Below, piece after piece: positions 1,309-21,423 of a stretch of DNA of 22,196 nt (its first letter is position 1; each line of letters opens with the position of its first letter). The translations under genes were made by a program, and so were the position numbers. The DNA is taken from IMG/VR virus record IMGVR_UViG_2703718769_000014; one strand, 5' to 3'. The stretch is from a virus (lineage: Duplodnaviria; Heunggongvirae; Uroviricota; Caudoviricetes). The notes beneath the pieces were generated by a model that was given only the letters and a program-made list of their open reading frames with translations, was not told the origin of the DNA and ran no database searches.

Positions 1309-1412
1309 AAAAATGAATCCGTTGAAGCCTGCTTTTTTATACTAAGTTGGCATTATAAAAAAGCATTGCTTATCAATTTGTTGCAACGAACAGGTCACTA
1401 TCAGTCAAAATA
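1309..1412. other. attL of a lambda-type prophage: bacterial B arm, 15-bp common core GCTTTTTTATACTAA (1323-1337), phage P' arm with arm-type Int and IHF binding region
   Basis: Exact lambda core followed by GTTGGCATTATAAAAAAGCATTGCTTATCAATTTGTTGCAACGAACAGGTCACTATCAGTCAAAATAAAATCATTATTTG, recalled as the lambda P' arm; bacterial-type sequence GAAGCCTGC on the ybhC side. Confidence 0.9.
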
Positions 1413-4678: not shown

Positions 4679-4976
4679 TGTAATTTCCTTTTACTTTTTA
4701 CAAAGCGTTTAATCATGGCTGATTATCTTTAAGCGTAGTAACAGCCTTGTGCGAAACATGTTACCAAATCGCCATTTCAGTGTATCCGCAGTTAGGCTGC
4801 CACTTCAAGGATTCCTAATTACATGGTACGTAAGCGTAAAATCCCGTTGGTTGTCGGGTAATAACTCTGATCAAATCTCCCTTGTCTTTTGCTCTTACGT
4901 ATGCAGCTCTTGTGTATTCAACCCAGGCCTCCAGTTCAGCAATACGCTTACTTCCATCCGAGATAACACCTTCTAC

Positions 4977-5228
4977 TCACGCTGCTCGTTGAGTTTTGAT
5001 TTTTGCTGTCTCCAGCTCAACACGCAGTTTCCTCACCGTTAGCGCAATATCCTCGTTCTCCTGGTCGCGGCGTTTGATGTACTGCTGGTTTCTTTCCCGT
5101 TCATCCAGCAGTGTCAGCACAATCGATGGTGTTACCAGCTCATGGAAAAGGTCCGCGTCAAATCCCCAGTTGTCATGCATTGCCTGCTCTGCCGCTTCAC
5201 GCAGTGCCTGAGAGTGAATTACGCTCAC
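4977..5228 (-). CDS. Exo-xis region protein, 83 aa; the reading frame continues for 53 further codons past an in-frame TGA down to 4818
   Basis: ORF translationally coupled to the upstream TraR-like gene (ATGA overlap at 5225-5228). The frame stays open from 4976 down to a TAG at 4815-4817, see findings. Confidence 0.5.
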   Translation of the reverse strand: MSVIHSQALREAAEQAMHDNWGFDADLFHELVTPSIVLTLLDERERNQQYIKRRDQENEDIALTVRKLRVELETAKIKTQRAA

Positions 5229-5446
5229 TTCGAACCTCTCTGTTTACTGATAAGTTCCAGATCCTCCTGGCAACTTGCACAAGTCCGACAACCCTGAACG
5301 GCCAGGCGTCTTCGTTCATCTATCGGATCGCCACACTCACAACAATGAGTGGCAGATATAGCCTGGTGGTTCAGGCGGCGCATTTTTATTGCTGTGTTGC
5401 GCTGTAATTCTTCAATTTCTGATGCTGAATCAATGATGTCTGCCAT
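5225..5446 (-). CDS. TraR/DksA-family C4 zinc-finger protein, 73 aa (lambda orf73-like)
   Basis: Translation has CxxC-x17-CxxC (C35/C38 and C56/C59) in a 73-aa protein, the size and motif of the phage/plasmid TraR family; position matches orf73 of the lambda exo-xis region. Confidence 0.8.
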   Translation of the reverse strand: MADIIDSASEIEELQRNTAIKMRRLNHQAISATHCCECGDPIDERRRLAVQGCRTCASCQEDLELISKQRGSK

Positions 5447-5544
5447 CTTTCATTAATCCCTGAATTGTTGGTTAATACGCTTGAGGGTGAATGCGAATAA
5501 TAAAAAAGGAGCCTGTAGCTCCCTGATGATTTTGCTTTTCATGT

Positions 5545-5826
5545 TCACCGTTCCTTAAAAACGCCGTTTAACATGCCGATTGCTAGACTTAAATGAGTCG
5601 GTGTGAATCCCATCAGCGTTACCGTTTCGCGGTGCTTCTTCAGTACGCTACGGCAAATGTCATCGACGTTTTTATCCGGAAACTGCTGTCTGGCTTTTTT
5701 GATTTCAGAATTAGCCTGACGGGCAATGCTGCGAAGGGCGTTTTCCTGCTGAGGTGTCACTGAACAAGCCCCATGTCGGCAAGCATAAGCACACAGAATA
5801 TGAAGCCCGCTGCCAGAAAAATGCAT
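5545..5826 (-). CDS. Exo-xis region hypothetical protein (93 aa as listed; more likely 71 aa from the GTG at 5760)
   Basis: C-terminal 70 residues look like a real helical protein (TPQQENALRSIARQANSEIKKARQQF...); the N-terminal 22 codons overlap a hydrophobic 27-codon ORF in another frame, so the start is ambiguous. Confidence 0.5.
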   Translation of the reverse strand: MHFSGSGLHILCAYACRHGACSVTPQQENALRSIARQANSEIKKARQQFPDKNVDDICRSVLKKHRETVTLMGFTPTHLSLAIGMLNGVFKER

Positions 5827-5840
5827 TCAGTGGTTGTCAT
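5757..5840 (-). CDS. Possible 27-aa hydrophobic peptide (MTTTECIFLAAGFIFCVLMLADMGLVQ)
   Basis: ATG at 5840 overlaps the stop of the upstream 63-aa ORF (ATGA); its TGA overlaps an in-frame GTG of the downstream ORF (GTGA). Looks like a single transmembrane helix. Confidence 0.3.
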   Translation of the reverse strand: MTTTECIFLAAGFIFCVLMLADMGLVQ

Positions 5841-6028
5841 ACCTGGTCTCTCTCATCTGCTTCTGCTTTCGCCACCATCATTTCCAGTTTTTGTGAAAGG
5901 GATGTGGCTAACGTATGAAATTCTTCGTCTGTTTCTACTGGTATTGGCACAAACCTGATTCCAATTTGAGCAAGGCTATGTGCCATCTCGATACTCGTTC
6001 TTAACTCAACAGGAGATGCTTTGTGCAT
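5837..6028 (-). CDS. Exo-xis region small protein, 63 aa (orf63-like by size and position)
   Basis: 63-aa ORF overlapping the upstream 60-aa ORF by 28 nt, as I recall for lambda orf60a/orf63. Confidence 0.6.
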   Translation of the reverse strand: MHKASPVELRTSIEMAHSLAQIGIRFVPIPVETDEEFHTLATSLSQKLEMMVAKAEADERDQV

Positions 6029-6183
6029 ACAGCCCCTCGTTTATTATTTATCTCCTCAGCCAGCCGCTGTGCTTTCAGTGGATTTCGGATAACAGAAAGG
6101 CCGGGAAATACCCAGCCTCGCTTTGTAACGGAGTAGACGAAAGTGATTGCGCCTACCCGGATATTATCGTGAGGATGCGTCAT
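6001..6183 (-). CDS. Exo-xis region small protein, 60 aa (orf60a-like by size and position)
   Basis: ATG at 6183 gives a 60-aa product whose start overlaps the exo stop by 4 nt (ATGA); the ORF track lists the same frame from an upstream ATG (6189). Confidence 0.5.
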
Positions 6184-6821
6184 CGCCATTGCTCCCCAAA
6201 TACAAAACCAATTTCAGCCAGTGCCTCGTCCATTTTTTCGATGAACACCGGCACCATCTCGTCAAAACTCGCCATGTACTTTTCATCCCGCTCAACCACG
6301 ACATAATGCAGTCCTTCACGCTTCATACGCGGGTCATAGTTGGCAAAGTACCAGGCATCTTTTCGTGTCACCCACATGCTGTACTGCACCTGGGCCATGT
6401 AAGCCGACTTTATGGCCTCGAAACCACCGAGCCGGAACTTCATGAAATCCCGGGAGGTAAACGGGCATTTCAGCTCAAGGCCATTGCCGTCACTGCATAA
6501 ACCATCGGGAGAGCAGGCGGTGCGCATACTTTCGTCGCGATAGATGATCGGGGATTCAGTAACATTCACGCCGGAAGTGAATTCAAACAGGGTTCTGGCG
6601 TCGTTCTCGTACTGTTTTCCCCATGCCAGCGCCTTAGCATTAACTTCCGGAGCCACACCGGTGCAAACCTCAGCCAGCAGGGTGTGGAAGTAGGACATTT
6701 TCATGTCAGGCCACTTCTTTCCTGAGCGGGGCTTGGCTATCACGTTGTGAACTTCTGAAGCGGTGATGACGCCGAGCCGTAATTTGTGCCATGCATCATC
6801 CCCCTGTTCGACAGCTCTCAC
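6180..6821 (-). pseudogene. exo: Lambda exonuclease (Exo/RedX) lacking about 13 N-terminal codons; 5' end is a deletion junction
   Basis: Translation matches lambda Exo from [27 protein letters not shown] to the C-terminus GFVFGEQWR. There is no ATG; the frame opens at a GTG and an upstream stop. bet is absent and a ren fragment follows. Confidence 0.85.
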
Positions 6822-6841
6822 GTCGATCCCGGTAACGCAGA

Positions 6842-6973
6842 TCGGATGATTACCGGTTCGCTACCAGGGAAGAACGGGAAGGAAAGGTGAGCACGAATCT
6901 GATTTTCAAGGAGTGTCGCCAGAGTGCCGCGATGAAGCGGATGTTGGCATTTTATCGCGGCAATTTTCAATAG
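6842..6973 (+). pseudogene. ren: ren 3' fragment (C-terminal about 43 codons)
   Basis: Plus-strand frame reads ...[41 protein letters not shown], matching the recalled lambda Ren C-terminus ([30 protein letters not shown]...); no start codon or N-terminal part. Confidence 0.75.
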
Positions 6974-10063: not shown

Positions 10064-10148
10064 AGTCAGAGATAACAATCAACTAATACTGTTTTATTGA
10101 TTTTTGCTTGTAATTGGCGTTCTGGTCTGATTTTTGTGGAGTAAGTTG

Positions 10149-10532
10149 ATGCGTGATATTCAGATGGTTCTTGAGCGTTGGGGAGCGTGGGCGGCTAATA
10201 ATCATGAAGATGTGACCTGGTCGTCCATTGCCGCCGGTTTTAAGGGATTAATTACTTCAAAAGTAAAATCTCGCCCGCAATGTTGTGACGATGACGCGAT
10301 GATCATTTGCGGGTGCATGGCCCGTCTGAAAAAGAACAACAGCGATTTGCACGATTTATTAGTAGATTATTATGTAGTCGGTATGACATTCATGTCACTG
10401 GCAGGTAAGCATTGCTGCTCTGATGGTTATATCGGGAAAAGGTTACAGAAGGCTGAGGGTATAATTGAAGGGATGTTAATGGCATTAGATATCCGGTTAG
10501 AGATGGATATCGTTGTTAATAACTCTAATTAA
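10149..10532 (+). CDS. quuD: Late-gene antiterminator Q (QuuD-type)
   Basis: 127-aa product from the ATG at 10149 (the track starts at an upstream TTG); Cys-rich zinc-finger region [16 protein letters not shown]; sits at the end of the nin block. Confidence 0.85.
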
Positions 10533-10565
10533 TATGCCAATTGTTTACTAAAAATTATTAAAAAT

Positions 10566-10583
10566 GGGGCGTTGAGACGCCCC
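10566..10583 (-). terminator. Hairpin GGGGCG-TTGAGA-CGCCCC with a T-run on the minus strand; likely terminator for the convergent porin transcript
   Basis: Inverted repeat seen directly; on the minus strand it is followed by ATTTTTAATAATTTTT. Confidence 0.5.
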
Positions 10584-10671
10584 CAAAAATAAAGGGTAAT
10601 ATATAACAGAAGGTTTATATAGTTAGAAGCAAGGTTGTGCTCCTAAAGGAAGTGGCTTGAGGGAGCCACTT

Positions 10672-10710
10672 ATATGTTGGGGAGGCAAAGCCTCCCGCAA
10701 CATATCTTTT
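10672..10710 (+). terminator. Long stem-loop (about 15-bp stem, AAA loop) followed by CTTTT, between the convergent Q and porin genes
   Basis: ATATGTTGGGGAGGC-AAA-GCCTCCCGCAACATAT then CTTTT; a second hairpin AGTGGCT-TGAGGG-AGCCACT lies just upstream (10651-10670). Confidence 0.5.
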
Positions 10711-10720
10711 AGTAATCAAA

Positions 10721-11803
10721 TTAGAACTGGTAAACCATACCTACAGCAACGATATCATCGGTAGCAACGCCAGATGCTTTCGTGAAATCGCTCTTATCAA
10801 TCAGGTTGATTTTGTAATCAACAAAAGTGGACATATTTTTGTTGAAGTAATAGGTTGCACCTACATCAATATATTCAACCAGGTCCTGATCACCCCACGC
10901 ACCCAAGTCTTTTCCTTTAGATTGCAGGTAAGCAACGGACGGACGCAGACCGAAGTCGAACTGATATTGTGCAACTACTTCGAAGTTTTGTGCTTTGTTG
11001 GCAATATGGTTATTACCAAAAACAGTCATGTTCTGGGTTTCAGAATAGGTGGTAGCCAGATAGATGTTGTTCGCATCATATTTCAGACCAGCTGCCCATA
11101 CTTCAGCATTTTGACCAGATGCATTCAGGCTGTTGTTACCGTAGATAACCTGATTATTAGTGCGGTCAGATTTAGCATAGGTTGCACCTACACCGAATCC
11201 TTCATACTCATAAGTAGTGGAGAAACCGAAACCATCACCATTAGCTTCAGTTACGTCAGTGCGGTCATTTTTACCCTGATACTGAGCAGCAAAGTTCAGA
11301 CCATCAACCAGACCAAAGAAGTCATTGTTACGATAAGTTGCAACACCTGTGGTGCGACCAGTCATGAATACATCTGTTTGGGTCCAGGTATCGCCACCGA
11401 ATTCTGGCAGAACGTCGGTCCATGCACCAATATCGTATGCTACACCGTAGTTACGGCCATAATCGATGGAGCCGTAGTCACCGAATTTCAGGCCAGCGAA
11501 GGCAAGACGGGTTTTATCTTTGGAGGAACCTTGAGATTCAGCGCGGTTGCCTTTGAATTCATATTCCCACTGACCGAAACCAGTCAGTTGATCGTTGATT
11601 TGGGTTTCACCTTTGAAGCCAAGACGGGCATAAGTAGTATCACCATCATCTGCATCATTAGAGGAGAAGTAGTGCTTAGCATTAACTTTCCCGTACAGAT
11701 CCAGCTTGTTACTGTCTTTATTATAAATTTCAGCTGCCTGAGCAGACATCGCCATCAGTACTGATGCAGCTACAGCAGAAATTGCCACTGTTAATTTTTT
11801 CAT
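10721..11803 (-). CDS. nmpC: NmpC/OmpD-type general porin (OmpC/OmpF superfamily), prophage-encoded
   Basis: Signal peptide [40 protein letters not shown]-terminus, PEFGGD loop motif, C-terminal VGMVYQF beta-signal. The track ORF begins 20 codons upstream of the true start. Confidence 0.9.
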
Positions 11804-12228
11804 CGTGAGCCCTTTTTTTGAACTATTATTAAAAAATGATGTCACTGCGCGATAAATATTCATCTAATCAATGTGATTATTTCAAGATGTAAGTTTTGGT
11901 TTCTCATTTGATTTGTGAAGTAGATCTCTATTTTTATCTGAACTTTTTCTATCGAATCCTATTCATGGCTCTTGGCTGAATAAAAATAAATCTATTAGCC
12001 AATTTATATTAATGGCTGTTATTTATAAGCGCTCTATAATTTGAAGATTCAATTTAAACCAGCTAAAAATAACGCTGGAAATTATTTGTTGGTTATTTGT
12101 TGAGATTTGCTTATGTATTTGTAGTGGTGTTTTCAATACTCGGTAGCATTCTCGCAAATATCATTTAGTGGTTTACGTACGTAAAAAATTGGTTATGCTG
12201 TTAAGAGTGGTTACTTCGTCACACAGCT

Positions 12229-12262
12229 TAAACCCGCCGTCGAGCGGGTTTTTCCATTTTTT
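12229..12262 (+). terminator. Rho-independent terminator (tR'-like) upstream of the lysis cassette
   Basis: AACCCGC-CGTCGA-GCGGGTT followed by TTTTCCATTTTTT, about 130 nt upstream of the holin start. Confidence 0.7.
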
Positions 12263-12390
12263 GAGTCTCGATATTAGCTGATAACCCAATACCTGAGTTA
12301 TTCACTGACTCCGAGTCTGTTACGTTTCTGCTTTTTTGCGATACGTTGTATTCCCTCAATTTACACCCGCTTTGTCTGCGAGGTGGGGTT

Positions 12391-12606
12391 ATGAAATCCA
12401 TGGATAAGTTAACAACGGGTGTCGCCTATGGCACCTCAGCAGGTAGTGCCGGTTACTGGTTTTTACAGCTGCTCGATAAAGTCACGCCCTCACAGTGGGC
12501 AGCAATAGGTGTGCTGGGTAGCCTGGTATTTGGCCTGCTGACGTACCTGACAAACCTTTATTTCAAGATTAAAGAAGATAAGCGCAAGGCTGCGAGAGGT
12601 GAATAA
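12391..12606 (+). CDS. essD: Phage-21-type class II holin (pinholin S21), dual-start motif MKSM
   Basis: 71-aa product [26 protein letters not shown]... with two transmembrane segments and a charged C-terminus; the track ORF is extended upstream. Confidence 0.9.
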
Positions 12607-13103
12607 TGCCTCCATCATTACGAAAAGCCGTTGCTGCTGCTATTGGTGGCGGAGCAATTGCTATAGCATCAGTGTTAATTACTGGCCCAAGTGGTAACGA
12701 TGGTCTGGAAGGTGTCAGCTACGTACCATACAAAGATATCGTTGGCGTATGGACTGTATGTCACGGACACACCGGAAAAGACATCATGCTCGGTAAAACG
12801 TATACCAAAGCAGAATGCAAAGCACTCTTGAATAAAGACCTTGCCACTGTCGCCAGACAAATTAACCCGTACATCAAAGTCGATATACCGGAAACAACGC
12901 GCGGCGCTCTTTACTCATTCGTTTACAACGTGGGTGCTGGCAATTTCAGAACATCGACGCTTCTTCGCAAAATAAACCAGGGCGATATCAAAGGCGCATG
13001 TGATCAGCTACGTCGCTGGACATATGCTGGCGGTAAGCAATGGAAAGGTCTCATGACTCGTCGTGAGATTGAGCGTGAAATCTGTTTGTGGGGTCAGCAA
13101 TGA
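12606..13103 (+). CDS. rrrD: SAR endolysin (signal-anchor-release lysozyme, R21 type)
   Basis: 165-aa ORF with N-terminal SAR domain [27 protein letters not shown] followed by a lysozyme-like domain; start overlaps the holin stop (TAATG). Confidence 0.92.
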
Positions 13104-13561
13104 ACAGAGTAACCGCGATTATCTCCGCTCTGGTTATCTGCATCATCGTCTACCTGTCATGGGCTGTTAATCATTACCGTGATAACGCCATTACCTACAA
13201 AGCCCAGCGCGACAAAAATGCCAGAGAACTGAAGCTGGCGAACGCGGCAATTACTGACATGCAGATGCGTCAGCGTGATGTTGCTGCGCTCGATGCAAAA
13301 TACACGAAGGAGTTAGCTGATGCGAAAGCTGAAAATGATGCTCTGCGTGATGATGTTGCCGCTGGTCGTCGTCGGTTGCACATCAAAGCAGTCTGTCAGT
13401 CAGTGCGTGAAGCCACCACCGCCTCCGGCGTGGATAATGCAGCCTCCCCCCGACTGGCAGACACCGCTGAACGGGATTATTTCACCCTCAGAGAGAGGCT
13501 GATCACTATGCAAAAACAACTGGAAGGAACCCAGAAGTATATTAATGAGCAGTGCAGATAG
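13100..13561 (+). CDS. Rz: Rz inner-membrane spanin
   Basis: Start [29 protein letters not shown] overlapping the endolysin stop; N-terminal transmembrane segment and coiled-coil periplasmic domain; matches recalled lambda Rz. Confidence 0.88.
13320..13502 (+). CDS. Rz1: Rz1 outer-membrane lipoprotein spanin, embedded in the +1 frame of Rz
   Basis: Lipobox VVVGC and proline-rich mature part ([21 protein letters not shown]) entirely inside Rz. Confidence 0.8.
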
Positions 13562-13592
13562 AGTTGCCCATATCGATGGGCAACTCATGCAA

Positions 13593-13886
13593 TTATTGTG
13601 AGCAATACACACGCGCTTCCAGCGGAGTATAAATGCCTAAAGTAATAAAACCGAGCAATCCATTTACGAATGTTTGCTGGGTTTCTGTTTTAACAACATT
13701 TTCTGCGCCGCCACAAATTTTGGCTGCATCGACAGTTTTCTTCTGCCCAATTCCAGAAACGAAGAAATGATGGGTGATGGTTTCCTTTGGTGCTACTGCT
13801 GCCGGTTTGTTTTGAACAGTAAACGTCTGTTGAGCACATCCTGTAATAAGCAGGGCCAGCGCAGTAGCGAGTAGCATTTTTTTCAT
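13593..13886 (-). CDS. bor: Bor lipoprotein (serum-resistance lipoprotein of lambda)
   Basis: 97-aa ORF MKKMLLATALALLITGCAQQTFTVQNKPAAVAPKETITHHFFVSGIGQKKTVD... matching recalled lambda Bor; lipobox ITGC. Confidence 0.92.
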   Translation of the reverse strand: MKKMLLATALALLITGCAQQTFTVQNKPAAVAPKETITHHFFVSGIGQKKTVDAAKICGGAENVVKTETQQTFVNGLLGFITLGIYTPLEARVYCSQ

Positions 13887-14176
13887 GGTGTTATTCCCGA
13901 TGCTTTTTGAAGTTCGCAGAATCGTATGTGTAGAAAATTAAACAAACCCTAAACAATGAGTTGAAATTTCATATTGTTAATATTTATTAATGTATGTCAG
14001 GTGCGATGAATCGTCATTGTATTCCCGGATTAACTATGTCCACAGCCCTGACGGGGAACTTCTCTGCGGGAGTGTCCGGGAATAATTAAAAACGATGCAC
14101 ACAGGGTTTAGCGCGTACACGTATTGCATTATGCCAACGCCCCGGTGCTGACACGGAAGAAACCGGACGTTATGAT

Positions 14177-14710
14177 TTAGCGTGGAAAGATTTGTGTAGT
14201 GTTCTGAATGCTCTCAGTAAATAGTAATGAATTATCAAAGGTATAGTAATATCTTTTATGTTCATGGATATTTGTAACCCATCGGAAAACTCCTGCTTTA
14301 GCAAGATTTTCCCTGTATTGCTGAAATGTGATTTCTCTTGATTTCAACCTATCATAGGACGTTTCTATAAGATGCGTGTTTCTTGAGAATTTAACATTTA
14401 CAACCTTTTTAAGTCCTTTTATTAACACGGTGTTATCGTTTTCTAACACGATGTGAATATTATCTGTGGCTAGATAGTAAATATAATGTGAGACGTTGTG
14501 ACGTTTTAGTTCAGAATAAAACAATTCACAGTTTAAATCTTTTCGCACTTGATCGAATATTTCTTTAAAAATGGCAACCTGAGCCATTGGTAAAACCTTC
14601 CATGTGATACGAGGGCGCGTAGTTTGCATTATCGTTTTTATCGTTTCAATCTGGTCTGACCTCTTTGTGTTTTGTTGATGATTTATGTCAAATATTAGGA
14701 ATGTTTTCAC
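14177..14710 (-). CDS. Hypothetical protein of the lambda right arm downstream of bor, 177 aa
   Basis: ORF present at the corresponding position of the lambda right arm as I recall it; AT-rich; no family recognised. Confidence 0.55.
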
Positions 14711-14872
14711 TTAATAGTATTGGTTGCGTAACAAAGTGCGGTCCTGCTGGCATTCTGGAGGGAAATACAACCGACAGATGTATGTAAGGCCAACGTGCTC
14801 AAATCTTCATACAGAAAGATTTGAAGTAATATTTTAACCGCTAGATGAAGAGCAAGCGCATGGAGCGACAAA

Positions 14873-15079
14873 ATGAATAAAGAACAATCTGCTGATGATC
14901 CCTCCGTGGATCTGATTCGTGTAAAAAATATGCTTAATAGCACCATTTCTATGAGTTACCCTGATGTTGTAATTGCATGTATAGAACATAAGGTGTCTCT
15001 GGAAGCATTCAGAGCAATTGAGGCAGCGTTGGTGAAGCACGATAATAATATGAAGGATTATTCCCTGGTGGTTGACTGA
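14873..15079 (+). CDS. Small hypothetical protein, 68 aa (YbcW-like by size and position)
   Basis: 68-aa ORF with Shine-Dalgarno GGAG upstream; present at the same place in the lambda right arm and DLP12. Confidence 0.5.
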
Positions 15080-15243
15080 TCACCATAACTGCTAATCATT
15101 CAAACTATTTAGCCTGTGACAGAGCCAACACGCAGTCTGTCACTGTCAGGAAAGTGGTAAAACTGCAACTCAATTACTGCAATGCCCTCGTAATTAAGTG
15201 AATTTACAATATCGTCCTGTTCGGAGGGAAGAACGCGGGATGT

Positions 15244-15438
15244 TCATTCTTCATCACTTTTAATTGATGTATATGCTCTCTTTTCTGACGTTAGTCTCCG
15301 ACGGCAGGCTTCAATGACCCAGGCTGAGAAATTCCCGGACCCTTTTTGCTCAAGAGCGATGTTAATTTGTTCAATCATTTGGTTAGGAAAGCGGATGTTG
15401 CGGGTTGTTGTTCTGCGGGTTCTGTTCTTCGTTGACAT
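15244..15438 (-). CDS. Small basic DNA-binding-like protein, 64 aa (YlcI-like)
   Basis: N-terminal Arg/Thr-rich segment MSTKNRTRRTTTRNIRFPNQMIEQINIAL suggests a ribbon-helix-helix fold; size matches the DLP12 small ORF upstream of cos. Confidence 0.55.
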   Translation of the reverse strand: MSTKNRTRRTTTRNIRFPNQMIEQINIALEQKGSGNFSAWVIEACRRRLTSEKRAYTSIKSDEE

Positions 15439-15599
15439 GAGGTTGCCCCGTATTCAGTGTCGCTGATTTGTATTGTCTGAAGTTGTTTTTACGTTAAGTT
15501 GATGCAGATCAATTAATACGATACCTGCGTCATAATTGATTATTTGACGTGGTTTGATGGCGTAGATGCACGTTGTGACATGTAGATGATAATTATTAT

Positions 15600-15830
15600 C
15601 ATTTTGCGGGTCCTTTCCGGCGATCCGACAGGTTACGGGGCGGCGACCTCGCGGGTTTTCGCTATTTATGAAAATTTTCCGGTTTAAGGCGTTTCCGTTC
15701 TTCTTCGTCATAACTTAATGTTTTTATTTAAAATACCCTCTGAAAAGAAAGGAAGCGACAGGTGCTGAAAGCGAGCTTTTTGGCCTCTGTCGTTTCCTTT
15801 CTCTGTTTTTGTCCGTGGAATGAACAATGG
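15600..15830. other. cos site: cosQ, cosN (12-nt cohesive end GGGCGGCGACCT at 15638-15649), cosB
   Basis: Sequence ...CGGGTCCTTTCCGGCGATCCGACAGGTTACGGGGCGGCGACCTCGCGGGTTTTCGCTATTTATGAAAATTTTCCGG... matches the recalled lambda genome ends and runs directly into nu1. Confidence 0.9.
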
Positions 15831-16372
15831 AAGTCAACAAAAAGCAGCTGGCTGACATTTTCGGTGCGAGTATCCGTACCATTCAGAACTGGCAGGAACA
15901 GGGAATGCCCGTTCTGCGAGGCGGTGGCAAGGGTAATGAGGTGCTTTATGACTCTGCCGCCGTCATAAAATGGTATGCCGAAAGGGATGCTGAAATTGAG
16001 AACGAAAAGCTGCGCCGGGAGGTTGAAGAACTGCGGCAGGCCAGCGAGGCAGATCTCCAGCCAGGGACTATTGAGTACGAACGCCATCGACTTACGCGTG
16101 CGCAGGCCGACGCACAGGAACTGAAGAATGCCAGAGACTCCGCTGAAGTGGTGGAAACCGCATTCTGTACTTTCGTGTTGTCGCGGATCGCAGGTGAAAT
16201 TGCCAGTATTCTCGACGGGATCCCCCTGTCGGTGCAGCGGCGTTTTCCGGAACTGGAAAACCGACATGTTGATTTCCTGAAACGGGATATCATCAAAGCC
16301 ATGAACAAAGCAGCCGCGCTGGATGAACTGATACCGGGGTTGCTGAGTGAATATATCGAACAGTCAGGTTAA
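15827..16372 (+). CDS. nu1: Terminase small subunit Nu1
   Basis: 181-aa ORF MEVNKKQLADIFGASIRTIQNWQEQGMPVLRGGGKGNEVLYDSAAVIKWYAERD... matching recalled lambda Nu1. Confidence 0.95.
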   Translation: MEVNKKQLADIFGASIRTIQNWQEQGMPVLRGGGKGNEVLYDSAAVIKWYAERDAEIENEKLRREVEELRQASEADLQPGTIEYERHRLTRAQADAQELKNARDSAEVVETAFCTFVLSRIAGEIASILDGIPLSVQRRFPELENRHVDFLKRDIIKAMNKAAALDELIPGLLSEYIEQSG

Positions 16373-17408
16373 CAGGCTGCGGCATTTTGTCCGCGCCGGG
16401 CTTCGCTCACTGTTCAGGCCGGAGCCACAGACCGCCGTTGAATGGGCGGATGCTAATTACTATCTCCCGAAAGAATCCGCATACCAGGAAGGGCGCTGGG
16501 AAACACTGCCCTTTCAGCGGGCCATCATGAATGCGATGGGCAGCGACTACATCCGCGAGGTGAATGTGGTGAAGTCTGCCCGTGTTGGTTATTCCAAAAT
16601 GCTGTTGGGTGTTTATGCCTACTTCATAGAGCATAAGCAGCGCAACACACTTATCTGGTTGCCGACGGATGGTGATGCCGAGAACTTTATGAAAACCCAC
16701 GTTGAGCCGACCATCCGCGATATTCCGTTGCTGCTGGCGCTGGCTCCGTGGTATGGCAAAAAGCACCGGGATAACACGCTCACCATGAAGCGTTTTTCCA
16801 ATGGTCGTGGCTTCTGGTGCCTGGGCGGTAAAGCGGCAAAAAACTACCGTGAAAAGTCGGTGGATGTGGCGGGTTATGATGAACTTGCTGCCTTTGATGA
16901 GGATATTGAACAGGAAGGCTCTCCGACGTTCCTTGGCGACAAACGTATTGAAGGCTCGGTCTGGCCAAAGTCCATCCGTGGCTCCACCCCCAAAGTGAGA
17001 GGCACCTGCCAGATTGAGCGTGCAGCCAGTGAATCCCCGCATTTTATGCGTTTTCATGTTGCCTGTCCGCACTGCGGGGAGGAGCAGTACCTTAAATTTG
17101 GCGATAAAGAGACGTCGTTTGGCCTCAAATGGACGCCGGATGATCCCTCCAGCGTGTTTTATCTCTGCGAACATAATGCCTGCGTCATCCGCCAGCAGGA
17201 ACTGGACTTCACTGATGCCCGTTATATCTGCGAAAAGACCGGGATCTGGACCCGTGATGGCATTCTCTGGTTTTCGTCATCCGGTGAAGAGATTGAGCCG
17301 CCGGACAGCGTGACCTTTCACATCTGGACGGCGTACAGCCCGTTCACCACCTGGGTGCAGATTGTCAAAGACTGGATGAAAACGAAAGGGGATACCTTCT
17401 GCCCGTAA
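16347..17408 (+). pseudogene. A: Terminase large subunit A, truncated after about 350 of 641 codons
   Basis: Translation follows recalled lambda gpA from MNISNSQVNRLRHFVRAGLRSLFRPEPQTAVEWADANYYLPKESAY to ...[11 protein letters not shown], then diverges (FCP*) at the junction with the tail-fibre fragment. Confidence 0.9.
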
Positions 17409-17409
17409 G

Positions 17410-18594
17410 GTGAATGGTAAGGCGCTTTCAGCGGATATAACACTGACGCCGAAAGATATTGGTACGCTTAACTCAACAACAATGTCATTCAGCGGTGGTG
17501 CTGGTTGGTTCAAATTAGCAACGGTAACCATGCCACAGGCGAGTTCTGTTGTTTCAATTACGTTGATTGGTGGCGCGGGATTTAACGTGGGGTCACCTCA
17601 ACAGGCAGGTATATCTGAACTTGTTTTGCGTGCAGGTAATGGTAATCCGAAGGGGATTACTGGTGCTTTATGGCAGCGCACATCGACAGGGTTTACAAAT
17701 TTTGCCTGGGTCAATACATCTGGTGATACTTACGATATTTACGTTGCAATCGGAAATTATGCGACTGGTGTAAATATTCAATGGGATTATACCAGTAATG
17801 CCAGCGTGACGATTCATACGTCACCAGCATATTCTGCTAATAAGCCGGAAGGGTTAACGGACGGTACAGTTTATTCACTCTATACGCCATCAGAGCAGTT
17901 TTATCCGCCTGGCGCACCAATCCCGTGGCCATCAGATACCGTTCCGTCTGGCTATGCCCTGATGCAGGGGCAGACTTTTGACAAATCTGCATACCCGAAA
18001 CTTGCAGCCGCTTATCCGTCAGCCGTGATCCCTGATATGCGTGGCTGGACGATTAAGGGCAAACCCGCCAGTGGTCGTGCCGTATTGTCTCAGGAACAGG
18101 ACGGCATTAAATCGCACACCCACAGCGCCAGCGCATCCAGTACGGATTTGGGGACGAAAAACACATCGTCGTTTGATTACGGAACCAAATCCACGAATAA
18201 CACCGGGGCGCATACCCATAGTATTAGCGGGACTGCAAATAGTGCCGGTGCGCACCAACACAAGAGTTCCGGTGCATTTGGTGGCACGAACACGAGCATT
18301 TTCCCTAATGGTTATACCGCGATTTCAAATCTAAGCGCGGGGATTATGAGCACAACAAGCGGTAGTGGCCAGACTCGTAATGCAGGGAAGACATCATCAG
18401 ATGGTGCTCATACCCACTCGCTGTCCGGCACTGCTGCAAGCGCAGGCGCACATGCACATACTGTCGGTATTGGTGCTCATACGCACTCCGTTGCGATTGG
18501 CTCACACGGACACACCATCACCGTTAACGCTGCTGGTAACGCGGAAAACACCGTCAAAAACATCGCATTTAACTATATTGTGAGGCTTGCATAA
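17410..18594 (+). pseudogene. stf: Side tail fibre (Stf) C-terminal fragment with His-x-His repeat region; no proper start
   Basis: Frame opens right after the truncated A gene; contains repeated GAHTHS / GAHAHT / GSHGHT motifs typical of the distal part of lambda/T4-type long tail fibres; followed by tfa with an ATAATG overlap. Confidence 0.8.
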
Positions 18595-19175
18595 TGGCAT
18601 TCAGAATGAGTGAACAACCACGGACCATAAAAATTTATAATCTGCTGGCCGGAACTAATGAATTTATTGGTGAAGGTGATGCATATATTCCGCCTCATAC
18701 AGGTCTGCCAGCAAACAGTACCGATATTGCACCGCCAGATATTCCGGCTGGCTTCGTGGCTGTTTTCAACAGTGATGAGTCATCGTGGCATCTTGTTGAA
18801 GACCATCGGGGTAAAACAGTTTATGACGTGGCATCAGGGGACGCGTTATTTATTTCTGAACTCGGCTCATTACCGGAAAATGTTACCTGGTTATCCCCGG
18901 AAGGGGAGTTTCAGAAGTGGAACGGCACAGCCTGGGTGAAGGATACGGAAGCAGAAAAACTGTTCCGGATCCGGGAGGTGGAAGAAACAAAAAACAGCCT
19001 GATGCAGGTAGCCAGTGAGCATATAGCGCCGCTTCAGGATGCTGTGGATCTGGAAATCGCAACGGAGGAAGAAACCTTGTTGCTGGAAGCCTGGAAAAAG
19101 TATCGGGTATTGCTGAACCGTGTTGATACGTCAACTGCACAGGATATTGAATGGCCAGTAGCACCTATAGGGTAA
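18594..19175 (+). CDS. tfa: Tail fibre assembly protein Tfa
   Basis: 193-aa [65 protein letters not shown]... matching recalled lambda Tfa. Confidence 0.9.
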
Positions 19176-19267
19176 ATTCGTAATGATTACCTAAATACGT
19201 TATTCTTTTGTTCAAAAAGTGATTTTGCTATAGATAGGGAGTATGTTCTTGGATTAAGAATAAAAAT

Positions 19268-19290
19268 CGCCATGAAAGAGCTTCATGGCG
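19268..19290 (-). terminator. Perfect 9-bp stem hairpin CGCCATGAA-AGAGC-TTCATGGCG with a T-run on the minus strand
   Basis: Inverted repeat seen directly; the minus-strand RNA would end in a U-tract (ATTTTTATT), implying a leftward transcript from the AT-rich tract. Confidence 0.4.
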
Positions 19291-20033
19291 AGTACATAAA
19301 CGTACAAAATGTGATGAAAGTAGAGTGGCGTAAGCCACTATATTAAGATGTGACAATAGCGAAGAAAAGTAAATAACATTTTATGGACGTTTAATTGTTA
19401 ATTATAAAAACTAGAGTGCCCGATATTGTTTACCTTGCTTTAAAATAATGTACTCAAACCAAATTTTTGAGCTAAAAGCTCAAATAATATAAATGCAATA
19501 ATAATGTTTAATAAGACAATTAGCTTGCTTTGTATTTTCATTTCGGAATACTGTTAAGTAACTTTGATGACCCTAACAATAGATCGGAATTTTCTTAGAG
19601 TCAATGGTCACTGTTTTTGCTTGCAAAGCAAATGTTTTGGTGGTTATAAGTTGTCTTAATATAGTCACGCATGCAACTTGTTCCATGCGGAGATTAAAGA
19701 TTGGAATATAACGCTAAGATGGAATTAAATTACATTTGCAATAATCAATTTATTATTACTCAATAATTACCGATATTATTATTGTAAATTAATCATTAGA
19801 GTGCAAAAAGAAATGTAACGGCAAAATAAGAGGACGATAGCTGAGAAAAAAGCGTGCTTTCCCAATCTGGGGCAAATCACGTCTGAATGACACCTGAAAA
19901 CAGGTGGTAGCCTCAAGAAGGCTTGGAATATTCTTCTTTAATGTTATGTAATTCATTGATTTTTCGTGTACGATTTAAAGACATTTATTCCAAGAAAAAT
20001 TTTTAACTCTTTGATTTTTCGACTCTGTATCAT

Positions 20034-20095
20034 CGGTCTCGAAAACCGGAGTAGGGGCAACTCTACCGGGGGTTCAAATCCCCCTCTCTCCGCCA
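20034..20095 (+). tRNA. 3'-terminal 62-nt fragment of tRNA-Ser(CGA) (serU-like): anticodon loop, variable arm, T-arm, acceptor 3' strand; the 5' 28 nt are missing
   Basis: CGGTCTCGAAAACCGGAGTAGGGGCAACTCTACCGGGGGTTCAAATCCCCCTCTCTCCGCCA matches the recalled 3' part of E. coli serU; upstream sequence does not encode the D-arm or 5' acceptor strand. Confidence 0.7.
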
Positions 20096-20679
20096 CTTTA
20101 TCAATGACTTATCTCCCGACTTCCCGCCTTGCTTTTCCTAAACAGAACAATCGTAGAATATTCTTGAAGGGTTAGATCGTCACTGTTTTCTGTTCGATAC
20201 TGTGACATTCAGCACTTGATTCGCTATGGATCTGACAGGAAGGTTTTGAGCGAAAATTTGCAGTTATTCAGTCGTTTTCTTATCGGTCACCATTATTCTT
20301 TTAGACATTGATCCTACAAAGCTGCCGCAAAGTTGGTGGTGGGAACTGAAGTTGCGTAGAGAAGGGGTCAATACCCGGAGGCAAACATGGGCTGGCAAAA
20401 GTGTAGCGGTATTAGGCGCAGCTATTTAGCCTAGTTATGTTTTATGAAAACTTGATATCATATAAGTGTCTTACTTATTGGCTGTAAATAAGTTTTTCCT
20501 AAGGAATTGTTTCTTGAGTATCATTTGTAACTGTAACGGAATTTATAATCCTTTGCTTTATTGTTACGGTATTTTTTATCACACCCTATTTTTTATGTGG
20601 TTTTTTATACTGAAGTTTGGCAAAGTGAACTTTATATGCATATACTTCATCCTGGTTTCAGTTAAGTTGGGTGGATGAT

Positions 20680-21423
20680 ATGGCAACTACATGTTCAGTT
20701 ATATTGATTTTGGAGTCCTTTGATGTTTATTTCGGAAAAGAGAGTGTGTTTCTGGAGAGAGGTTCATCTGTACTTGTCGACTCTAGCTCTAGAGATTTTT
20801 TCCTGACATATCCTGAAAGAGTGATAGTGGCGGATTTTGGCGCTGAGTTTATTAGTCGCTATTTGAAAGCTAATAACTTAAGGGATATTTCTGATTGTAG
20901 GGAATATCCATCTTATTTAAAAATAAACTTTGCTGACTTCAGTTTAATTAAAGGATTAATTAGTTGGGCTAATCACTGTGCTGAATACATAGAAATTTTT
21001 GATGAGTCTATTGCTTTTACATGTCTCTCTGCATTTTCTTCTGAAAAACAATTTGGAGTATTTCTGTTTGAATGTTTGAAAAGCACAGGGGCTAAAGTTA
21101 AAACGATTATTCATACGGATTTATCTGCACCATGGCGTCTTAAGGATATATCATCAAGATTATATCTCAGCGAAAGTTTACTAAAGAGGAAATTGAAAGA
21201 AGAGGGGGTATCATTCAGTAAGATCATACTTGATGAGAGGATGCAAATGGCTGAATATTTACTCAGCACTCGTTGTTATCCTATTAGTAAAGTAGCTAAG
21301 GTCTGTGGTTATGCCAGTGTCTCATACTTTACTTATGTATTTAGACGTTATTTTGGTGTTTCTCCAAGTCAATACTCTCAGAGCAGTTCAGAAAGTAAAA
21401 TTCTTACTCACCAGGGAATCTGA
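20680..21423 (+). CDS. AraC/XylS-family transcriptional regulator (AppY/Rns-like), AT-rich
   Basis: C-terminal dual helix-turn-helix signature (WRLKDISSRLYLSESLLKRKLKEEGVSFSKIILDERMQMA...VAKVCGYASVSYFTYVFRRYFGVSPSQY); ATG at 20680 preferred over the GTG at 20671; low GC. Confidence 0.85.
   Translation: MATTCSVILILESFDVYFGKESVFLERGSSVLVDSSSRDFFLTYPERVIVADFGAEFISRYLKANNLRDISDCREYPSYLKINFADFSLIKGLISWANHCAEYIEIFDESIAFTCLSAFSSEKQFGVFLFECLKSTGAKVKTIIHTDLSAPWRLKDISSRLYLSESLLKRKLKEEGVSFSKIILDERMQMAEYLLSTRCYPISKVAKVCGYASVSYFTYVFRRYFGVSPSQYSQSSSESKILTHQGI

Follow-up and report, generated by a model that had tools for sequence, protein, structure and literature searches.

A terminase–tail fibre junction in a lambda-family cryptic prophage probably marks an internal deletion that ends at a recurrent exchange point in stf

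How did a truncated terminase gene come to abut the C-terminal part of a side-tail-fibre gene in a lambda-like prophage, and can what is left behind still be packaged or interfere with other phages? The DNA analysed here (the window) is 22,196 nucleotides long. Comparison with lambda (NC_001416) by blastn matched window positions 13100–15637 to lambda 45966–48502 at 99.3% identity and 15638–17395 to lambda 1–1759 at 97.7%. Homology to lambda gene A stops at 17395, which is lambda 1759 and A codon 350, and stf homology starts at 17389–17393, so that the two overlap in TAC. From 17389 on, the stf side follows the undeleted stf carried by a sister prophage in E. coli EC416, at 99.97% identity; the stf of E2865 also matches it, from about nucleotide 1760–1765 of 2961. 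In a base-by-base three-way alignment, the breakpoint (slash) reads GGGGATAC/GGGAAA in lambda A, GGTCGGGTAC/CTTCTGCCCG in intact stf and GGGGATAC/CTTCTGCCCGTAAGGTG in the window. The A frame continues across the junction as ...KTKGDTFCP to a TAA stop at 17406–17408, and 'stf lies in the +1 frame relative to A'. An initial annotation had described gpA homology ending at ...KTKGDT with an stf frame opening soon after, and had proposed precise alignment to lambda A and stf as the check; both the parental alignments and the three-way alignment bear out the junction, with the stf ORF opening at GTG 17410.

An identical 1001-bp junction segment was found in 12 complete E. coli genomes. Their sources are unrelated and they come from different laboratories, NCTC strains included; metagenome and IMG/VR contigs also carry the junction. 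The initial annotation had named an assembly artefact, that is, A and stf reads wrongly joined, as the finding that would overturn its reading. We found no point in support of such an error and, because the same sequence is present in 12 complete genomes, the junction is not an assembly artefact; the chance of one is practically negligible. The features of the locus are collected in Table 1.

Table 1. Features of the prophage locus, in window coordinates.
Feature	Position	Strand	Basis
attL core GCTTTTTTATACTAA, next to ybhC	1331–1345	+	Exact lambda att core; lambda homology from lambda 27724
int 1419–2489 (356 aa) and xis 2467–2685 (72 aa), lambda type, full length	1419–2685	−	ORFs; 97.9% nucleotide identity to lambda; PGAP integrase, excisionase
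exo'::'ren, second internal deletion scar	6830–6838		bet to P removed, including immunity and replication regions
DLP12-like late region: quuD, essD, rrrD, rzpD and a porin gene (minus strand)	10134–13562	+	PGAP on near-identical RM10410 locus; ORF list
cos region; cosN nick-site junction 15637/15638, cosB toward nu1	15560–15826	+	15637 = lambda 48502, 15638 = lambda 1
nu1 (nohD), terminase small subunit, intact	15827–16372	+	181 aa; 1 residue differs from lambda Nu1; Pfam Phage_Nu1 E=9e-101
A', truncated terminase large subunit: 350 lambda-like residues + FCP + stop	16347–17408	+	346/350 identical to lambda gpA; PGAP pseudogene, C-terminus missing
Crossover TAC, common to A and stf	17393–17395		Three-way alignment; TA 17393–17394 = recurrent exchange point, >20 other left partners
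'stf, C-terminal ~400 codons of 987-aa side tail fibre	17396–18594	+	Out of frame with A'; ORF GTG 17410; Pfam Collar, Phage_fiber
tfa, tail fibre assembly, intact	18594–19175	+	193 aa; Pfam Caudo_TAP E=8e-43; PGAP tail fiber assembly protein

The element occupies the lambda attachment site between ybhC and ybhB-bioA. It is flanked by an exact attL core and, judging from the sister locus, by an attR core that lies ~225 nt past the window end and has one mismatch, giving an attL–attR span of ~21 kb. Its gene order is that of lambda with essential genes missing: int, xis, exo', 'ren, a nin-region module, Q, lysis genes, cos, nu1, A', 'stf and tfa are present; cI, cro, N, O, P and W to lom are absent. 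The exo'::'ren deletion, flanked by window 4930–6834 (lambda 30094–32002) and 6849–6948 (lambda 40449–40548), took cI, cro, N, O, P and ori; compared with EC416, 444 bp more are missing, with a crossover within CGGTA. The element is thus a non-inducible, non-replicating, multiply deleted cryptic prophage of the DLP12/Qin kind. DLP12 (nohD-aaaD'-tfaD) and Qin (nohA-stfQ-tfaQ) of E. coli K-12 have the same layout. Both carry lysis genes, bor and cos; the nu1 homologue is intact, A is truncated or missing, and the fusion is to a remnant of a tail-fibre or tail-fibre-assembly gene. The late region of DLP12 is alike in gene content. Unlike them, the present element sits at attB-lambda with lambda-type int and xis, and its A' is longer (350 aa) and followed by 400 codons of another stf family. 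By itself, the A/stf junction is routine prophage decay as in DLP12 and Qin.

In a near-complete relative in E2865, 22,363 bp lie between the two breakpoints, of which ~2.7 kb is an IS66 insertion; the lost segment is therefore ~19.7 kb. The deletion noted initially stands, but its size, put at about 17 kb, does not. Every gene from W to lom is absent, in agreement with the statement that all morphogenetic genes between A and stf are gone, as are the first ~587 codons of stf. Sister alleles (at least 99.9% identical, same site) end elsewhere. EC416 and PEC1009 carry nu1' (lambda 700)::'lom with stf intact, NCTC9040 joins lambda 237 to a point just upstream of an intact stf, 23CRST021 carries nu1'::'stf, and E423 joins A' (lambda ~955) to sequence downstream of tfa. 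IAL7255 and AH65, two less closely related alleles at this site (~97% identical), keep some head genes. Because the sister alleles have different deletions, the morphogenetic region disappeared on several occasions among descendants of one ancestor that was defective to begin with. The PapRG-04-4 element, 97% identical, has the same stf endpoint as the window; since the window stf is 99.97% identical to that of the intact sister allele, the junction is recent and not inherited from that element.

We therefore read the junction, with a probability of roughly 85%, as the scar of a single ~19.7-kb internal deletion in a lambda-family prophage whose stf endpoint is a recurrent exchange site. In the ancestor, a bet'::'ren deletion would first have taken out the immunity and replication genes, at which stage the full head and tail operon would still have been present. 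DNA from A codon 350 to about stf codon 588 would then have been removed by non-homologous exchange at the shared TA(C), leaving a 353-aa A' that has only the ATPase domain, a C-terminal piece of stf out of frame with it and an intact tfa. With its GTG one base past the A' stop, the stf fragment would be translated at most by re-initiation. cos and nu1 survive because they are situated just left of the deletion.

The 12-nt cohesive-end sequence of cosN, GGGCGGCGACCT, is identical to that of lambda. Elsewhere in cos, the element shares with the viable phage Turner a 1-nt deletion in cosB and three substitutions that lie upstream of cosN. A further cosB change, A to G near lambda 118, is private to the element and is the sole difference from the Turner cos region, cosB (R3, I1, R2, R1) and cosQ included; we take it to fall in R2. 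The description of cos/cosB as perfect and of Nu1 as intact thus survives in substance for cosN and Nu1, but not strictly, given the changes upstream of cosN and in cosB and one Nu1 residue. A' retains the GpA_ATPase Pfam domain and has lost GpA_nuclease (residues 322–600 in lambda gpA), so it does not have both the ATPase and endonuclease domains of a functional large subunit. With the nuclease domain and W–lom missing, terminase and virions are indeed beyond the element's capacity, as first proposed. By sequence, cos and nu1 are essentially intact; any function of theirs in the element would be putative.

Such a locus might be a helper-dependent mobile element, a natural cosmid or cos-type satellite that relies on a superinfecting lambdoid phage for terminase and capsids, for cutting at its cos and for the packaging and transfer of its DNA. 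Packaging in trans had been raised initially, and the cos one base off that of a viable phage, the intact nu1, int and xis and the retention of cos in all sister alleles (at least six) point that way. Like cos-type satellites (PICIs) and cosmids, the element is small and integrated, with int, xis and cos and no capsid genes. However, lambda heads take ~37–51 kb between two cos sites, with a packaging minimum of ~37–38 kb, against an attL–attR span of only ~21 kb. The exo'::'ren deletion removed the replication genes and ori, so no concatemers would form, and no second cos lies downstream in the 20 kb examined. nu1 is truncated or lost in sister alleles: it is absent in NCTC9040, and only 360 bp are left in 23CRST021. 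In contrast to PICIs and cosmids, the element has no annotated replication or helper-exploitation genes (neither primase-replicase nor packaging-redirection gene), carries phage Q with holin, endolysin and spanin genes, and clearly derives from a full prophage by deletion. Efficient packaging in trans is unlikely for a ~21-kb element without repressor, N, O, P and origin, and we consider a mobile element quite improbable, even though particulate DNA release and transfer have been reported for some defective O157 prophages (PMC2669165). By analogy, the fate documented for such remnants is rescue by recombination with an infecting phage: the DLP12 cos-nu1-A' region recombines with infecting lambda or phi80, with junctions clustered at cos, and breaks at the prophage cos were suggested by the authors to contribute to the clustering (PMC3945230).

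The remnant could alternatively act as an anti-phage decoy or poison, if the chromosomal cos titrated, or were cut by, incoming terminase, or if Nu1 and the nuclease-less A' formed dead terminase complexes that block the maturation of related phages. Nu1 is intact, cosB is nearly so in sequence, and A' keeps the complete ATPase domain together with the N-terminus, through which gpA binds Nu1. nu1 and A' also belong to the late operon under Q control, so that infection by a phage whose Q matches could turn them on. Prophage remnants can defend their host, as with a different cryptic-prophage Stf chimera that blocks T2 adsorption (PMC12529663). The relevant genes are nevertheless not conserved. 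A is wholly missing in the EC416, PEC1009, NCTC9040 and 23CRST021 alleles, some of which lack part or all of nu1, which argues against selection for A' or Nu1. Moreover, the partner sequence GGA-TA-C at the A breakpoint follows the rule seen at other junctions with stf, as described below, so no selection is needed to account for it. A decoy role is thus very improbable.

The stf endpoint itself is used again and again, a recurrence that the initial annotation missed. Its sequence is GGTCGGG-TA-CCTTCTG. The 22-mer immediately right of the junction occurs in 206 loci. Of these, 169 are intact; the other 37 are rearranged and form ~24 classes with different left partners abutting one point. The stf TA has been joined to no fewer than 22 distinct partners. 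They come from terminase, portal, protease, gpW, J and early genes, from a P2-type fibre gene and from stf itself, and the prophages concerned are lambda-like, Rac-like and P2-like. Searches anchored downstream and upstream ruled out a bias from the 22-mer, and no junction fell between the site and an anchor 113 nt downstream in any of 207 loci. In 1480 records from complete E. coli genomes, the best match was only partial for about 89; among the partial matches listed, the three that are near-identical to the query start at query positions 145–148, at most five bases from the site.

In the 20 classes whose intact partner was recovered, the crossover dinucleotide is TA in 16 and carries a single mismatch in four. 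The base 3' of TA comes from stf in every class, and the base 5' of it comes from the partner in all but one, whose reference homologue is only 97% identical. All 20 classes fit exchange at TA, one of them on the assumption of a SNP in that 97%-identical homologue. The likeness between partners and site is spread over separate positions, CGG-N-TA-N-C. Two contigs from the same metagenome, L123 and L230 (one with only 73 nt of stf), carry the exactly reciprocal junctions of an inversion, with no base lost or gained. As behaviour, the confined dinucleotide, clean flanks and lossless reciprocals are those of a conservative 2-bp-core exchange. With more than 20 independent rearrangements, the stf TA suggests an unrecognised site-specific recombination hotspot; we found nothing specific in the literature on a deletion hotspot in stf. 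The site is not carried by K-12 Qin, DLP12, e14 or lambda, so the hotspot is not studiable there.

Ordinary random microhomology-mediated deletion, with reuse of the endpoint by coincidence, shared ancestry or search bias, would be consistent with the 3-nt overlap at the A'/'stf junction and with overlaps of 2–7 nt at other deletions in these prophages. It is hard to reconcile with ~24 different partners at one point, with the lack of breakpoints over the neighbouring 113 nt in the search from another anchor, and with one reciprocal inversion. The non-contiguous CGG-N-TA-N-C likeness is not selectable by base pairing alone, and the recent origin of the junction, rather than descent from the PapRG-04-4 element, speaks against shared ancestry. 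We judge random microhomology to have very little chance of being correct. These prophages hold ten further deletion junctions that were compared: five also cross at TA, two or three show only a 2-nt overlap of GA or AA, and two overlap by 4–7 nt. Such a mixture leaves room for a general process that uses short homologies and strongly prefers the site.

We infer from the junction sequences that the exchange would be conservative and 2-bp-staggered, of the serine-recombinase type. A tentative proposal, which we hold to be possible at somewhat less than even odds, is that CGGG-TA-CC at the start of the conserved stf C-terminal cassette is the preferred substrate of a putative conservative recombination activity. 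This activity would exchange the TA core with weakly similar CGG-N-TA-N-C partners, repeatedly deleting or inverting the DNA between partner and site and always sparing the receptor-binding stfC-tfa. CGGG-TA-CC also occurs in P2-like H genes. No recombinase gene linked to the site is present in the window or related loci, none is annotated near tfa, and a search of 217 loci that allowed six mismatches found the site nowhere a second time, in either orientation. Rightward deletions from the site were not seen, as against ~23 leftward classes, an asymmetry not predicted by a symmetric recombinase without selection for stfC-tfa. The conservative character comes from a single reciprocal pair, L123/L230.

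Among known systems, the Din-family invertases (Cin, Gin, Pin, Hin) acting at quasi-sites in tail-fibre genes come close, with one fixed site, many weakly similar partners, a 2-bp-core crossover, deletions as well as inversion and, as with Cin quasi-sites, occasional core mismatches resolved either way. Invertases are also suspected drivers of stf exchange (PMC3945230). The bases flanking the core are GG..CC here but CC..GG in Din sites, and there is neither a paired site nor an invertase gene nearby. In a consensus scan for the 26-bp Din site, TTCTCNNAAACC-NN-GGTTTNNGAGAA, stf-tfa scored 12/20 at best and the junction at most 9/20, while the e14 pix sites used as positive control scored 18–19/20; a Din site at the breakpoint is thereby ruled out. 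An invertible segment with a paired site was likewise discarded, with no second copy in the 217 loci and no relevant repeats in window 17200–20700. Ter-arrested-fork deletion hotspots and gyrase-mediated illegitimate recombination also combine one fixed with one variable endpoint and short junction homologies. They differ in that no Ter-like sequence is visible by eye at the site and no stable hairpin forms there (z-scores −0.1 to −0.6). DNA folding of both strands gave z-scores of −0.1 to −1.1 overall, which disposes of hairpin or cruciform stalling. The 4-bp stagger of gyrase predicts single-parent junction tetranucleotides, whereas these are mixed in 8 of 20 classes with constant polarity, which disfavours a gyrase-type stagger and fits a 2-bp exchange.

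Several other candidates were set aside. A transposon-like 'NTAC' target rule was rejected because TAC comes wholly or partly from the stf side in several classes. A mobile stfC-tfa cassette inserted into A would leave lambda sequence past 1759 after the cassette, and there is none. Restriction at GGTACC on both partners does not apply, GGTACC being present in only 2 of 20 partners, and no resident IS was seen at the site among ~200 loci. A secondary lambda Int site is disfavoured by arms unlike core-type sites in a by-eye comparison and by events in P2-like and Rac-like prophages, which presumably have different integrases. A prophage-in-prophage attB was considered as well, and the paper on it makes no mention of tail fibres.

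Tail-fibre cassette exchange has been ascribed in the literature to invertase-like recombination, with no defined site in lambdoid stf. A site-specific activity at the stf TA would explain why many E. coli prophage remnants end in the stf C-terminus plus tfa, and would offer a testable mechanism for the exchange of tail-fibre cassettes. It would also allow hosts or competing elements to disarm prophages quickly and recurrently while the receptor-binding modules are kept; such modules can block phage adsorption, as reported in at least one study (PMC12529663). If CGGG-TA-CC is indeed the preferred substrate, it would provide a molecular route for such disarmament and equally for the grafting of tail-fibre host-range cassettes onto unrelated genes, which has long lacked an explanation.

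Base-level alignment to lambda A and to an intact stf confirmed the A-to-stf junction proposed in the initial annotation. Homology to lambda A ends at codon 350 of 641, and for the stf side the best parent is the 987-aa gene that EC416 carries in its copy of the prophage (99.97% identity across 2.9 kb). At the break, lambda A reads GGGGATAC followed by GGGAAA, intact stf reads GGTCGGGTAC followed by CTTCTG, and the window reads GGGGATAC followed by CTTCTGCCCGTAAGGTG. The truncated terminase large subunit A' ends in ...KTKGDTFCP and keeps the whole GpA_ATPase Pfam domain with GpA_nuclease gone; the stf remnant lies in the +1 frame, where a 394-aa ORF carries Collar and fibre-repeat domains and is followed by a complete tfa, the tail fibre assembly gene. 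Having lost GpA_nuclease and the morphogenetic operon, the element is unable to make terminase or virions, as had been claimed. The junction segment is identical across 12 complete genomes, ruling out an assembly artefact. The loss exceeds the first estimate of ~17 kb: in the near-complete relative carried by E2865 the breakpoints lie 22,363 bp apart, including a ~2.7-kb IS66 insertion, which leaves ~19.7 kb deleted. As an object the junction is ordinary, the K-12 scars nohD-aaaD'-tfaD (DLP12) and nohA-stfQ (Qin) being of the same kind. One base separates the A' stop TAA from the GTG that opens the Stf-fragment ORF. The 3' part of tfa gave a full-length match to the candidate small-RNA family IS009 (218 bits vs a gathering score of 117).

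Features of the prophage in window coordinates, with lambda counterparts
Feature	Window	Lambda	Basis
Exact lambda att core	1331-1345
att core and int-xis	1331-2940	27724-29333	blastn
Early-left segment missing from RM10410	3639-5807
ea22 to exo	4930-6834	30094-32002	blastn
exo'::'ren scar	6830-6838
ren fragment, 100 bp	6849-6948	40449-40548	blastn
Rz, bor, right genome end	13100-15637	45966-48502	blastn
Left genome end, directly after right end	15638-17395	1-1759	blastn
A-to-G in cosB	15752	~118
Start of intact-stf homology	17389-17393
TA of the stf site	17393-17394
End of lambda A homology	17395	1759
A' stop	17406-17408
A' stop, one base, GTG	17406-17412
Stf-fragment ORF, GTG start	17410-18594
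tfa	18594-19175
IS009 (RF02111), + strand	18937-19135		Rfam
att-core-like 15-mer	20599-20613

The complete E. coli genomes FDAARGOS_1248, 200112 and NCTC9087 hold a chromosomal segment 100% identical to the 22,196-bp window. It occupies the classical lambda attachment site, with ybhC on one side and ybhB-bioA on the other. The backbone was defined by blastn against lambda, and the intervening ybcN-rzpD region is annotated as DLP12-like. From the att core to attR, which has one mismatch and lies ~225 nt past the window end (seen in a sister locus), the prophage measures ~21 kb. A second att-core-like 15-mer (GGTTTTTTATACTGA, 13/15; ~0.04 such matches expected by chance) lies just upstream of an AraC-family regulator gene, and the segment with that gene and an IS remnant may be what is left of a second, tandemly integrated element. 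The otherwise 99.9%-identical RM10410 prophage lacks 2.2 kb of the early-left region, a further strain-specific deletion. The Chi site GCTGGTGG occurs on neither strand of the whole 22-kb window.

The same prophage (at least 99.9% identical) was found at the same site with other internal deletions: nu1' (lambda 700)::'lom with stf intact in EC416 and PEC1009, lambda 237 joined just upstream of an intact stf in NCTC9040, nu1' (lambda 551)::'stf in 23CRST021 and SCPM-O-B-12142, and A' (lambda ~955) joined downstream of tfa in E423. The more distant alleles IAL7255 and AH65 (~97% identical, same site) still hold head genes. At least five different head-tail deletions of this prophage are represented (related loci L007, L008, L009, L010, L011 and L013; more distant, L012 and L014). 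All alleles share cos, the lysis genes and bor to the left, and all except E423 also have stfC-tfa, the C-terminal part of stf together with tfa, to the right. Neither the window allele nor the EC416 allele is derivable from the other, so two or more separate events must have removed the morphogenetic operon since their common ancestor. The exo'::'ren junction is a second deletion scar that removed bet to P; compared with bet'::'ren of EC416, a nested deletion has taken another 444 bp from the window. Its crossover falls in CGGTA, a GGTA/TA context like that of the stf site. The bet'::'ren scar is common to the alleles, which places the loss of immunity and replication genes in their ancestor. 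The alleles thus represent parallel decay from a prophage that was already repressor-less.

Nu1 is intact as reported, with a single difference from the lambda protein among its 181 residues, and cosN is identical to lambda's. To call cos/cosB perfect is slightly too strong: relative to lambda, the element has three substitutions upstream of cosN and lacks 1 nt in cosB, differences that the viable phage Turner shows too, and an A-to-G change (GGAAACGAC to GGAAGCGAC), in neither lambda nor Turner, is private to the element and falls in what we take to be the R2 terminase-binding element. Even so, cos is probably cleavable. Packaging of the element in trans by a lambdoid helper, as suggested earlier, is unlikely. 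Lambda packaging requires ~37-51 kb between two cos sites; the prophage has only 21 kb, no second cos is visible in the 20 kb downstream, and with the origin, O and P missing, concatemers do not form. Some defective O157 prophages are packaged via inter-prophage help (PMC2669165), so that a low-level event is possible. For the equivalent region of DLP12, what is documented is that infecting lambda or phi80 rescues it through homologous recombination, with half of the crossovers adjoining cos and terminase-made breaks at the prophage cos suggested to contribute (PMC3945230). A decoy or dominant-negative role of cos or nu1-A' finds no support from conservation, as there are sister alleles without A and some without part or all of nu1.

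The stf endpoint (GGTCGGG-TA-CCTTCTG) recurs in E. coli PapRG-04-4, in a different defective prophage at another locus and only 97% identical (L004 5448-8019), which carries nohD and A'::J fragment::'stf. Its A' runs to lambda 1614 and is followed by an internal J fragment of 472 bp (lambda 15670-16141); the second of these two successive scars falls at the same stf TA, the stf remnant beginning at the identical base. We therefore scanned public collections with the 22-mer that adjoins the junction on its right and obtained 206 loci. Upstream stf was intact in 169, and in the other 37, comprising ~24 classes, the upstream sequence diverges from exactly the same point. Joined to stf there are lambda A, a gpA-type terminase unlike lambda's (cut only a few codons away from the corresponding position, and with the same ...TFCP end before its stop), a small terminase subunit, gpW, portal, an S49 protease, J (two sites), stf itself (three internal sites), a P2-type H gene at codon 3, the exo region, and the trkG side of a Rac-like prophage; deletions range from 229 bp to >17 kb. 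In the other out-of-frame fusions the upstream frame ends at the same TAA or at a TGA overlapping the GTG, so re-initiation could express the Stf fragment whatever the partner.

An anchor placed 113 nt further right (207 loci) revealed no junction between site and anchor. In a left-anchor control, 184 loci were intact, seven matches were chance 16-mers, one was a divergent homologue, and the only true stfN::other junction was L230. Of 1480 records from complete E. coli genomes, 1391 read through the site without a break and ~89 gave only a partial best match; of the partial matches listed, three are near-identical to the query and start at most 5 bases from the site, and a fourth, short and 89% identical, covers the far right end of the query. 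Anchored locus searches found no deletions running rightward from the site. Selection may preserve stfC-tfa, the prophage end may be too close, or the mechanism may be polar. A cryptic-prophage Stf chimera has recently been shown to block T2 adsorption (PMC12529663), which might explain why stfC-tfa is retained so persistently. No description of the hotspot was found in the literature searched.

The register of the exchange was analysed in 20 classes for which an intact partner copy was recovered. In 16, a partner TA aligns with the TA of GGG-TA-CC; the remaining four have one mismatch in the dinucleotide (TG, TG, CA, CA), which was then inherited from either parent. The base 3' of the dinucleotide comes from stf and the base 5' from the partner in all classes but one, for which the reference homologue is only 97% identical. 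Partners resemble the site at C -4 (10/20), G -3 (11/20), G -2 (13/20), T 0 and A +1 (18/20 each) and C +3 (13/20), with -1 and +2 variable, a non-contiguous pattern that base pairing alone would not select. Two IMG/VR contigs from the same metagenome (3300029469), L123 and L230, hold the two reciprocal junctions of a portal gene/stf inversion; in an intact homologue their flanks meet at adjacent bases, with a TA overlap and zero bases lost or gained. A gyrase-type 4-bp stagger predicts single-parent junction tetranucleotides, yet eight classes are mixed with constant polarity. A 2-bp exchange fits better. It is the signature of serine recombinases, a likeness inferred from behaviour rather than from an identified enzyme.

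A consensus scan for Din invertase sites scored at best 12/20 in stf and at most 9/20 at the junction, vs 18-19/20 for the e14 pix sites. No paired copy of the site was present in 217 loci, annotation of the window and related loci placed no recombinase gene nearby, DNA folding gave no significant hairpin at the site, and the hotspot sequence is absent from K-12 prophages and lambda. The site behaves like invertase quasi-site recombination, yet fails the defining tests of that family. We regard a dedicated recombination activity at the stf hotspot as a tentative reading, with a probability of about 0.35. Ten further deletion scars from these prophages were compared: five, including exo'::'ren and the EC416 and E423 junctions, also cross at TA in GGTA/TACC-like contexts, and in two or three of the others the parents overlap by 2 nt, GA or AA. 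The five TA crossings suggest that the same activity may act more widely in these prophages, with the stf site as its best substrate.
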